From an uncultured Chloroflexota bacterium (lineage in GTDB: Bacteria > Chloroflexota > Dehalococcoidia > CAUJGQ01): a stretch of DNA of 64,000 bases. The DNA lies in contig CALFMN010000102.1 of assembly GCA_937879875.1 (NCBI GenBank), forward strand, positions 5,556 to 69,555. The letters run 5' to 3'. Position 1 is the stretch's first letter, and every line of letters begins with the position of its first letter. This document shows positions 26,934-28,175 of the stretch, piece by piece. Position numbers and translations under genes: made by a program. A model generated the notes under the pieces. That model was not told the DNA's origin. It saw nothing but the letters and a program-made list of their open reading frames with translations, and made no database searches.

Positions 26934-28175
26934 TCACCGTCCAACCCACTTCCCATCGTCGTTATAGTTGAGGGAACGTGGCCAACCGGCAGCTTGCCAG
27001 ATCGCGTCAAACATAGGACGCAACGTGAGTGCGACATCAGACGTGAAGTCATCCAACAAGGCTTCCGGCACCACAAGCGTTTCGCGATCGATTGGAACTC
27101 CGCCACCCCATGCCTTCGCTGATTCTGCCGTTATCTCGTAGCCGCGTGCGCCGAGGACGGTGAGCATCACGAACACTGGCGGCGTAACGCCGAGAGTGCC
27201 CAGCACTCCCACGTACGCTTTCACAGCCTGGATTACCCGGTGTTCGTAGATAGGTGGAATTTCCGTTCCTGCTGTTGGACCGTTCGGGCGCAGGAGAGAA
27301 GCATCTACTGCTTCGATTGCTCCATTCCTGAAGAGTTGGGTGTAGCCAGTGCGCCCGCCCCTACTGCCCTGCGGACCAAAGTTCAGCCAACCGTCAAAGT
27401 TGTACCGATAGCCATTTCCGCCTTGTGCGATTGGTTCGAGTTCACGCCAGTGCTCACTTGCCTGAACAATATCGACGTTGGCGCCGGGTTCGGCGGCCGA
27501 GGCCGGAAAGAGGTGAAGTACGAATCGGCCACTGCCCTCCCAGACGGCACTCTGGTCGCCGAGGTAGTCTCTTACAGATGAGTCGATCTCGACCGGCGTT
27601 TCTCCCGCGACGATGCGGGCGAGCCGATCCAACCGAAACTGCCGTACCCGCTCCGGAAACGCCTCGCTGACGGCAAAGGCGGCGCGAATCTCTCCTACGT
27701 CGAGCTGGTACTTCCCGGCGCTGTTCCGCGAGAAGAAGCGTGACCAGTTCTTGTAGGTGACCGTGTGCGGCTGCGCCCAGCTCTGACGCACACGGACCAG
27801 CAGCACGGGGCCGTCAGCGAATCCCCCGATGAACCGCGGCTGAACTGCCGGCAACCTCGGCGCGATGCCGTCGCGGATGATTGACTCCAGGCGCAGCATC
27901 TCGGCGTCCTGATTGACGTCACGAAGGCCCGCAGCGCTCTCAGGCAGGCCAGTGTTCTTCCCGCTGGCGTCCTTCGCCTCACTCACACCGAACAGAATGT
28001 CGCCGCCACTGGCATTCGCCATCGAGGAGACGTCGGCGAGGAACTCCCTCTTGTCTTCGTCCGAGTTGCCCGGAAGCGCGCCCTTGTAGTCGAGGGCGCG
28101 GCCCTCGGCTACCCCGTCGGCAACCAGAGCGTCGATGTCTGCTTTGGTGATTGCGTCCAGTGGTTTGCTGATCAT
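26934..28175 (-). CDS. AlbA_2 (Schlafen-core-like) domain protein with uncharacterised ~270-aa C-terminal region
   Basis: ATGA overlap with the hsdS stop (28172-28175). The N-terminal ~140 aa (EGRALDYKGALPGNSDEDKREFLADVSSMANASGGDILFGV...VLLVRVRQSWAQPHTV) fit the AlbA_2 / 'divergent AAA-4' pattern. The usual HATPase/HTH tail is not evident. GC content is visibly lower than in neighbouring genes. Confidence 0.7.
   Translation of the reverse strand: MISKPLDAITKADIDALVADGVAEGRALDYKGALPGNSDEDKREFLADVSSMANASGGDILFGVSEAKDASGKNTGLPESAAGLRDVNQDAEMLRLESIIRDGIAPRLPAVQPRFIGGFADGPVLLVRVRQSWAQPHTVTYKNWSRFFSRNSAGKYQLDVGEIRAAFAVSEAFPERVRQFRLDRLARIVAGETPVEIDSSVRDYLGDQSAVWEGSGRFVLHLFPASAAEPGANVDIVQASEHWRELEPIAQGGNGYRYNFDGWLNFGPQGSRGGRTGYTQLFRNGAIEAVDASLLRPNGPTAGTEIPPIYEHRVIQAVKAYVGVLGTLGVTPPVFVMLTVLGARGYEITAESAKAWGGGVPIDRETLVVPEALLDDFTSDVALTLRPMFDAIWQAAGWPRSLNYNDDGKWVGR

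Follow-up and report, generated by a model that had tools for sequence, protein, structure and literature searches.

A probable Schlafen-type defence nuclease carried between hsdS and hsdR of a Chloroflexota type I restriction-modification operon

Introduction

Prokaryotic Schlafen proteins (pSlfns), relatives of the antiviral Schlafen enzymes with which human cells cut RNA, were shown to act as anti-phage tRNases only in 2025–2026, and few of their sensor architectures have been tested. Here we describe a pSlfn gene located in the hsdS–hsdR gap of a type I restriction-modification (R-M) operon in an uncultured Chloroflexota bacterium of the Dehalococcoidia (contig CALFMN010000102.1 of assembly GCA_937879875.1). 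The analysis covered 64,000 nucleotides of this contig (positions 5,556 to 69,555, forward strand), hereafter the window, in whose coordinates the features below are given. Judging from sequence comparison and from analogy with characterised pSlfns, the product is probably a single-gene pSlfn defence nuclease that travels in the operon as independent cargo and does not form part of the R-M enzyme itself.

The pSlfns surveyed by Perez Taboada et al. (Nat Microbiol 2026, PMC13056530) are single polypeptides in which a PF04326 domain with an Ex4(E/D)xK motif, described for 5,930 pSlfns, is fused to an accessory domain. RorSlfn5 (Slfn with an immunoglobulin (Ig)-like sensor) and EcoSlfn7 (DUF262 with Slfn) confer protection on E. 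coli; the former is a tRNase activated by a trigger and forms a higher-order oligomer (PMC13056530). In CbCash (PMC13462974, PDB 9ylu), E17, D22 and K24 form an E-D-K triad that binds Mg2+, and tRNA cleavage is lost when this triad is mutated; activity is controlled via filament formation through a C-terminal sensor, a Csx15 Rossmann-like receptor of cyclic tetra-adenylate (cA4) from type III CRISPR. A Schlafen protein of Enterococcus lactis with an unannotated C-terminus provides broad abortive-infection defence (PMC13552941).

Embedded defence cargo in type I R-M, BREX and DISARM operons was described by Payne et al. (bioRxiv 10.1101/2024.01.29.577857) under the term ‘guilt-by-embedding’; PrrC is almost exclusively embedded, and most embedded systems are also common elsewhere. 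Since pSlfn phage-defence tRNases and defence genes nested in type I R-M operons have both been published, the window gene belongs to a known kind. Two features appear to go beyond the published pSlfn accounts: the recurrent placement of this pSlfn family in the hsdS–hsdR gap, and a highly abundant C-terminal domain that TIR and PNP effectors can also carry.

Domain organisation and active site of the pSlfn protein

The gene and the parts of its product are as follows:

26934..28175, minus strand: pSlfn gene, 413 aa, stop codon included (open reading frame (ORF) list and translation, Pfam PF04326 with E 8.4e-12, more than 1,020 homologues)
27702..28175, minus strand: predicted N-terminal Schlafen/AlbA_2 nuclease domain, aa 1-158 (Pfam, Foldseek, profile match to CbCash)
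28083..28106, minus strand: codons of the catalytic motif E24-x4-D29-x-K31, Ex4(E/D)xK (alignment to CbCash and SLFN13)
27600..27701, minus strand: linker helix, aa 159-192 (helix at 160-189 in the model; stays joined to the C-terminal domain when this is fused to other effectors)
27534..27599, minus strand: low-confidence loop, aa 193-214 (pLDDT, the predicted local distance difference test, below 50 at 202-213)
26937..27533, minus strand: C-terminal domain, aa 215-413, unannotated, weakly TBP-like, putative sensor or regulator (no Pfam, NCBIfam or PADLOC match)

The sole Pfam match of the protein is SLFN_AlbA_2 (PF04326) at aa 24-158, scoring 46 bits against a cut-off of 25.3. A first-pass annotation of this DNA, made from the sequence alone, had already read the N-terminus as an AlbA_2 domain, and the peptides that it quoted are found in the translation of 26934..28175. 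The commonest bacterial architecture is AlbA_2–HATPase_c_4–winged helix-turn-helix (wHTH), HATPase_c_4 being the domain usually found after AlbA_2 in bacteria. The window protein, in contrast, has neither HATPase_c_4 nor a winged-helix tail, as the same annotation had recognised: Pfam gives no match to HATPase_c_4, helix-turn-helix (HTH) or winged-helix families down to E 0.1. NCBIfam and PADLOC (v2.0.0) were likewise without a match to the protein.

A full-length AlphaFold model, built on 43 homologues (alignment A1), reached pLDDT 86 and a predicted template modelling score (pTM) of 0.71. In a Foldseek search its N-domain matched 2kyy, the rat SLFN13 N-domain (5yd0) and SLFN12, SLFN14, SLFN11 and SLFN5, with E 8e-5 to 1e-3, and a family profile compared with PDB sequences placed CbCash first (E 1.6e-3), followed by SLFN13 and SLFN14; the homology to CbCash is confined to pSlfn aa 20-140. 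The motif of the window protein reads E24-GRAL-D29-Y-K31, and in profile alignments E24/D29/K31 align with E17/D22/K24 of CbCash and with E205/E210/K212 of SLFN13, E66 being aligned with SLFN13 D248. E24 and K31 are present in all rows of alignment A1 (43/43 each), position 29 is E in 28 rows and D in 15, and E66 is kept in 41/43. More broadly, E-x4-(E/D)-x-K occurs in 119/120 homologues among the matches listed. The catalytic acidic residues of SLFN13, whose loss would have spoken for a plain DNA-binding protein according to the first-pass annotation, are kept here (E24/D29/E66). By sequence, the N-domain is taken to be a Schlafen-type nuclease domain with an intact active-site motif.

In this respect the window protein resembles CbCash, which is the best match among solved structures and shares both the N-terminal single-lobe Schlafen domain and the aligned E-D-K triad. 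Unlike CbCash, it has no Csx15 domain, and no CRISPR gene is found in the window operon. SLFN11, SLFN13 and SLFN14 have a homologous nuclease fold with the same three acidic positions; however, the eukaryotic Schlafens consist of a two-lobed core, a linker and helicase domains, whereas the window protein has one AlbA_2 lobe. The likeness to the pSlfns of PMC13056530 extends to the whole polypeptide, which combines PF04326, the Ex4(E/D)xK motif, a fused accessory domain (aa 215-413) and a location among defence genes, and in which the nuclease is better conserved than the accessory domain. It differs from RorSlfn5 and EcoSlfn7 in that its accessory domain is unannotated and weakly TBP-like. Among full-length members of the family, one protein of 402 aa (P0228), in which lysine replaces the first catalytic glutamate (QKGKTIEYK), is possibly an inactive or decoy variant.

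Family distribution and genomic context

More than 1,020 relatives of the window pSlfn were returned by a word-index search. The 119 listed homologues (window protein excluded) are 378-428 aa long and align at 95-100% query coverage with 41-53% identity; the names they carry include ‘hypothetical’, ‘ATP-binding protein’, ‘putative transcriptional regulator’, ‘helix-turn-helix domain-containing protein’ and ‘putative DNA-binding domain’. A scan of one genome per species yielded 331 loci in many bacterial phyla and in archaea (Methanothrix, Bathyarchaeia, Thermoplasmata, Halobacteriota). On plasmids, tblastn detected full-length relatives in Rubrobacter, Ralstonia, Paraburkholderia, Burkholderia, Rhizobium, Haloplanus, Legionella and the Bacillus cereus group. 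No phage-encoded relative was found by tblastn against 50,697 phage records, and BFVD gave weak matches only.

Neighbourhoods were analysed in the best 80 of the 331 loci by all-against-all ORF clustering; 40 of these loci, with at least 5 kb on either side, were considered well flanked. The recurrent neighbour families are HsdS (16), HsdM (14) and HsdR (13), and no other conserved partner gene recurs in the 80 related loci. A type I R-M match is present in about 20/80 loci: 13 show the one-strand arrangement hsdM–hsdS–[cargo]–pSlfn–[cargo]–hsdR, and four contain R-M remnants only. When the well-flanked loci are considered, type I R-M genes occur in 13/40 and are absent from 27/40. The neighbours of stand-alone members include type IIG R-M, DISARM, AbiE, SoFic, BrxH and type IV restriction endonuclease genes, mixed with housekeeping genes. 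The PDC-M04A/B pair that follows pSlfn in the window stands beside it nowhere else, PDC-M04A being absent from 80/80 related loci; genes of about 230 aa located 3' of pSlfn in two loci (L001, L006) were considered as PDC-M04A and proved not to be homologues.

These neighbourhoods bear on two alternative explanations. The first is a non-catalytic regulator, in which the AlbA_2 and TBP-like domains would bind DNA or RNA and control the operon or a downstream cassette. Database names such as ‘putative transcriptional regulator’ agree with it, as do the weak resemblance of the C-terminal domain to the DNA-binding protein TBP, its sole structural resemblance, and the missing catalysis of some mammalian Schlafens. 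Yet these names are automatic and inherited from an old Pfam description, the protein has no HTH or other DNA-binding Pfam domain, and no downstream target gene is conserved in the 80 loci. Conservation of E-D-K throughout the listed homologues, save one, is unexpected of a mere binder, and the C-terminal domain is also found on the enzymes TIR and PNP, which makes a purely regulatory role improbable. The second is an addiction or stabilisation module, or a selfish toxin, i.e., a conditionally toxic RNase that would stabilise its R-M island or plasmid. The gene is horizontally mobile and scattered over bacteria and archaea, it occurs on plasmids and near integrases or recombinases, and its GC content lies below that of its flanks. 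However, being mobile and carried on plasmids is just as characteristic of defence genes, the 80 loci reveal no conserved antitoxin-like partner beside it, and the pSlfn relatives tested so far act against phage. By sequence an addiction role and a defence role cannot be told apart; with these points taken together, we give the addiction role very little probability.

Relation to the type I R-M operon

The window operon forms a minus-strand block in the order hsdM, hsdS, pSlfn, PDC-M04A, PDC-M04B, hsdR. Apart from pSlfn, its genes are:

29484..31133, minus strand: hsdM, type I R-M methyltransferase subunit (Pfam N6_Mtase, E 3.5e-107, and HsdM_N)
28172..29494, minus strand: hsdS, type I R-M specificity subunit (Pfam Methylase_S; likely ATG at 29494)
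25933..26643, minus strand: PDC-M04A, DUF3800 protein, gene A of a second embedded cassette, separate from the pSlfn gene (PADLOC E 6e-96; Pfam DUF3800 E 2e-12)
25445..25936, minus strand: PDC-M04B, 163 aa, gene B of the second embedded cassette (PADLOC E 9e-55)
22002..25073, minus strand: hsdR, type I R-M restriction/translocase subunit (Pfam HSDR_N, SWI2_SNF2, T1R_D3-like and T1RH-like_C, E down to 5e-129)

The pSlfn ATG (28175-28173) and the hsdS TGA (28174-28172) overlap by four nucleotides (ATGA) within cctcATGAtcagc, exactly where the first-pass annotation had placed the junction, and a GGAG lies 11 nt 5' of the ATG. From the overlap that annotation expected the expression of pSlfn to be stoichiometrically tied to hsdS. 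It is ordinary packing of a compact operon, because the junctions of hsdM with hsdS (11-nt overlap of the hsdS start and the hsdM stop) and of PDC-M04A with PDC-M04B (GTGA, the GTG start at 25936 overlapping the PDC-M04A stop) are equally tight. Over the 3' half of pSlfn and the 290-bp spacer that follows, GC content is 56-63%, compared with 66-70% around, which is consistent with acquired cargo. A same-strand gene nested in a type I R-M operon beside PDC-M04 is the arrangement of the embedded candidates of Payne et al. (2024), although the window family, unlike the PDC and HEC embedded candidates of PADLOC, is without a PADLOC v2.0.0 model.

PrrC combines an ABC-ATPase domain with a HEPN-type anticodon nuclease. 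In the prr locus of E. coli its gene likewise lies between hsdS and hsdR on the same strand, and RNA cleavage that backs up restriction would be expected in both cases. The first-pass annotation had suggested a PrrC-like role, which in its full form is a guard: the C-terminal domain would dock on the type I R-M complex, the RNase would be kept silent, and a phage anti-restriction attack would release it. Besides the prrC-like position and the ATGA overlap with hsdS, this explanation draws on the type I R-M genes being the sole recurrent neighbours, at a frequency in the well-flanked loci (13/40) far above the expectation for a random gene, on the direct abutment of pSlfn on hsdS in 9/15 loci, and on three loci, two of them cyanobacterial, that retain just the hsdS 3' end fused ahead of the gene.

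Several observations nevertheless make such a guard unlikely. No type I R-M gene is found within 5-10 kb of 27/40 well-flanked relatives, whereas PrrC is almost always embedded and regulated by the R-M complex, and in 6/15 loci another gene separates pSlfn from hsdS. The R-M systems that host the gene are of at least three divergence classes, in which hsdR shows 26%, 32-40% and 48-64% identity to that of the window. In the tree, embedded members are interspersed with stand-alone ones, with an enrichment in the half to which the window protein belongs; the nearest neighbour of an embedded member is also embedded in 10/18 cases, against 3.9 expected (p ~0.02). On plasmids, moreover, TIR and PNP effectors use the same C-terminal domain without an R-M system in the vicinity, and the window protein is unrelated to PrrC in sequence and in domains. 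As most relatives stand alone, the C-terminal domain is not, in general, a module for docking on HsdS/HsdR; the docking role that the first-pass annotation had proposed, and a PrrC-like dependence on the R-M complex, are not supported by this locus evidence, to which the state of decayed operons can be added. For the embedded clade a guard of this kind keeps a small probability. Classification of the window protein as a PrrC type was also considered and rejected: its sole Pfam match is PF04326, and PADLOC, which includes PrrC, gave no match.

Decayed operons with an intact pSlfn gene were found in four loci (L010, L011, L012 and L037). In L010 (Brasilonema), L011 (Scytonema NIES-4073) and L012 (an unclassified metagenome-assembled genome), only the last ~35-50 hsdS codons precede pSlfn; these remnants (L010:927-1034, L011:9879-10001, L012:5931-6077) are 47-61% identical to the C-terminus of the window HsdS, and L011 additionally has a broken hsdR. 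The occurrence of intact pSlfn beside R-M remnants indicates that the gene outlives the R-M system. The hsdS 3' remnants may be explained in either of two ways: pSlfn expression signals lie there, or recombination within the conserved C-terminal part of hsdS mobilises the cassette.

Elsewhere the same hsdS–hsdR gap holds HEC-01A/B, PDC-S05 (RhuM), SoFic, a GmrSD-like HEC-05, PDC-M14A and an HTH–deaminase–HATPase_c_4 protein. In a Planctomycetaceae type I R-M operon (L028:8074-9747), a gene combining HTH_3, cytidine-deaminase-like and HATPase_c_4 domains is located just upstream of pSlfn, an unusual embedded architecture. The HsdR and HsdM proteins of the window are 57-64% and 57-69% identical, respectively, to those of L014, L026, L028, L030, L031, L050 and L011, a comparison that spans Methanothrix archaea, Planctomycetota, Dehalococcoidia and cyanobacteria, and are thus more similar than the embedded pSlfn proteins (42-47%). 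By sequence, this similarity points to a single type I R-M lineage that has spread widely by horizontal transfer and whose cargo can be exchanged.

The C-terminal domain and its association with other effectors

No Pfam model matches the last ~230 aa of pSlfn. To the first-pass annotation this part was a distinct and novel region of ~270 aa. A conserved folded domain is indeed present, but its folded part comprises ~200 aa (215-413) behind the helix at 160-189, and the domain, although unannotated, is not unique to the window protein. The C-terminal region modelled alone (AlphaFold, aa 186-413, 30 sequences) gave pLDDT 88.5 and pTM 0.88, with the order β-strand, short helices, four strands and a long helix, followed by a strand, a helix, two strands and a helix. 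Within the preceding loop (aa 193-214) the window protein carries an insertion of ~15 residues, SSVRDYLGDQSAVWEG, at a position that is a gap in all 42 other rows of alignment A1.

The structure comparison proposed by the first-pass annotation thus yielded a confident fold but weak matches. The top 25 PDB matches of the C-terminal model in Foldseek are all TBP, the best with E 7e-3, at probability ≤0.8 and TM 0.24-0.33, and BFVD returned weak matches that include giant-virus TBP-like proteins. On these models, ‘TBP-like’ denotes a weak, fold-level resemblance only. A second Schlafen lobe was considered for this region; none of the 50 Foldseek matches listed is a Schlafen structure, and the domain is therefore not such a lobe. 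A search of PDB sequences for a solved homologue returned noise only (a capsid protein at E 0.65 and FtsY at E ~0.8). In the survey of PMC13056530, ‘TBP-like’ fusions make up 1.5% of pSlfns, and the window family may correspond to this class or to one of the 558 unannotated groups; the four pSlfn groups tested there do not include the TBP-like architecture, which would place the window family outside them unless it falls in the unannotated class.

Mean pairwise identity within the Schlafen family is 38% for the C-terminal domain, compared with 60% for the nuclease; a sensor that diverges more than the nuclease was also reported for pSlfn5 (PMC13056530). Against this background, a set of mainly polar and aromatic C-terminal residues is invariant, namely R257, N259, D261, G262, Y278, Q280, F282, R283, E288, D390 and W393.

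To assess its abundance, the C-terminal profile was run against 1.84 billion representative proteins, with the matches clustered at 50% identity. This search gave 7,195 clusters at E ≤1e-3 and 2,620 at E ≤1e-30. The top 150 matches include 80 full-length proteins, of which 76 carry the Schlafen motif, one carries the altered motif (P0228) and three have other N-terminal domains. Two of the latter are TIR proteins (P0155, with TIR at 319-430 and the C-terminal domain at 483-693, and P0153, with an N-terminal TIR and the same C-terminal domain); the third, P0218, has PNP_UDP_1 at 13-250 and the C-terminal domain at 296-505. TIR and PNP_UDP_1 are typical defence effector domains. P0218 aligns with the window protein over window aa 170-413 (33% identity, E 1e-45), and since the homology starts at aa 170, the mobile unit comprises the linker helix and the C-terminal domain. 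‘Short forms’ of ~260 aa, which start at the conserved Met138 of the Schlafen domain, were considered as a separate architecture and then treated as truncated gene calls.

Plasmids provide further cases of this association. On plasmids of B. cereus and Planococcus, tblastn gave domain-only matches within proteins annotated as TIR; in WP_012477848.1, a 388-aa TIR protein of B. cereus AH820, the C-terminal domain was located at 189-386 with an hhalign probability of 99.9 and E 1e-35. When further effector partners were sought, a word-index search with the B. cereus C-terminal domain returned two matches, and a search with the full TIR fusion was swamped by TIR-only matches. When PADLOC was applied to the fusions, the TIR parts matched ThsB and PDC-S66 and the PNP part matched the CBASS ‘PN-superfamily’ effector, while no PADLOC model covers the C-terminal domain shared by the TIR and PNP fusions.

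The gene for WP_012477848.1 (L090:5422-6588, plasmid pAH820_272) adjoins SMEK-domain, XerS and HEPN genes, forming a conflict-type mini-island in a cultured strain. A different combination of two effector-type domains in one chain was seen in P0276 (749 aa, metagenomic), which has a Schlafen/AlbA_2 domain at aa 19-135 and a ThsB-like TIR at aa 411-503.

Reuse behind TIR and PNP domains fits a swappable sensor or regulator, as judged from sequence, and the suggestion of the first-pass annotation that the C-terminal domain acts as a sensor gains support from these fusions. We tentatively go one step further, with rather more doubt than confidence: the linker helix and C-terminal domain (aa ~170-413) may be an undescribed and widespread trigger-sensing or activation module (~7,200 clusters, bacteria and archaea) that is plugged onto at least three unrelated suicide effectors, i.e., a Schlafen RNase, a TIR NADase and a PNP-type nucleosidase. 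Residues R257, N259, D261, Y278, Q280, R283, E288, D390 and W393 would in that case recognise a single conserved cue of infection, which could be a nucleic acid or small molecule, and not a particular phage protein; in the R-M-embedded clade this cue could be linked to restriction failure.

Proposed mode of action

With the domain identity, the conserved active-site residues, the family distribution, the modular C-terminal reuse and the gene position as starting points, we infer an RNase activity, a tRNA substrate, a defence phenotype, a sensor role and an activation mechanism for pSlfn. The N-domain is predicted to be a metal-dependent Schlafen endoribonuclease, as its E-D-K site suggests. 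If it works like RorSlfn5, CbCash and the mammalian enzymes, it would cut tRNA, and possibly rRNA, upon infection, leading to translation arrest and a lower phage yield. An effector that defends the cell by attacking RNA would fit the 2026 experimental pSlfn papers (PMC13056530, PMC13462974, PMC13552941).

The linker and C-terminal domain would hold the enzyme off until a cue arrives, and the switch would probably operate through the oligomeric state, as in CbCash and RorSlfn5; the reuse with TIR and PNP points the same way. TIR and PNP effectors are expected to act as oligomers. In CbCash it is likewise the C-terminal sensor that controls activity via oligomerisation; in the window protein the sensor role of this domain is putative. 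As to the cue, the invariant residues would favour a conserved ligand or interface, and the faster overall divergence of the domain would favour co-evolution with phage. Within the operon, pSlfn would behave as autonomous cargo of the hsdS–hsdR gap beside PDC-M04, gaining shared transcription, translational coupling and horizontal transfer together with the R-M genes, and the host would benefit from a second defence layer that works when restriction fails.

A number of points weigh against the interpretation of pSlfn as an independent defence nuclease with a sensor domain. The enrichment of R-M genes and the abutment on hsdS (9/15) leave room for a functional R-M link. About two-thirds of the well-flanked relatives lie in heterogeneous neighbourhoods of housekeeping and defence genes, and some family members may have a non-immune role. 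The pSlfn family has no PADLOC v2 model, and the fold assignment of the C-terminal domain is weak. Finally, the invariant polar residues suggest, at the sequence level, a conserved ligand or interface over a fast-evolving sensor of phage proteins.

As the C-terminal domain is reused with TIR and PNP, its trigger would explain the switching-on of three classes of abortive-infection enzymes. The trigger would also tell whether R-M-embedded cargo acts independently of restriction or as its back-up. For the annotation of the window, the arrangement hsdM–hsdS–[pSlfn]–[PDC-M04A/B]–hsdR amounts to a small layered defence island.

Operon layout and adjacent genes

Scans for promoters and terminators gave no signal above background in the operon, and an Rfam scan found no family anywhere in the 64,000-nt window. 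The hsdM ATG at 31133 is preceded by GGAGG. PDC-M04A/B is a candidate two-gene defence system of the ‘guilt-by-embedding’ screen. In the 371-bp spacer between PDC-M04B and hsdR lies an acidic, proline/arginine-rich ORF of 74 aa (25094..25318, minus strand), which may be spurious in high-GC DNA.

Upstream of hsdM, on the plus strand, one long ORF (32465..33292) joins, in a single frame, a Gp49-like toxin domain (DUF891, RelE/HigB-type) and an antitoxin-like HTH_3 domain, and is followed by a gene for an HTH_17 (excisionase-like) protein (33342..33953, plus strand). Together with the R-M operon, these two genes have the look of a small mobile or defence island set between housekeeping genes, among them a luciferase-like monooxygenase and DUF1800/DUF1501 genes.

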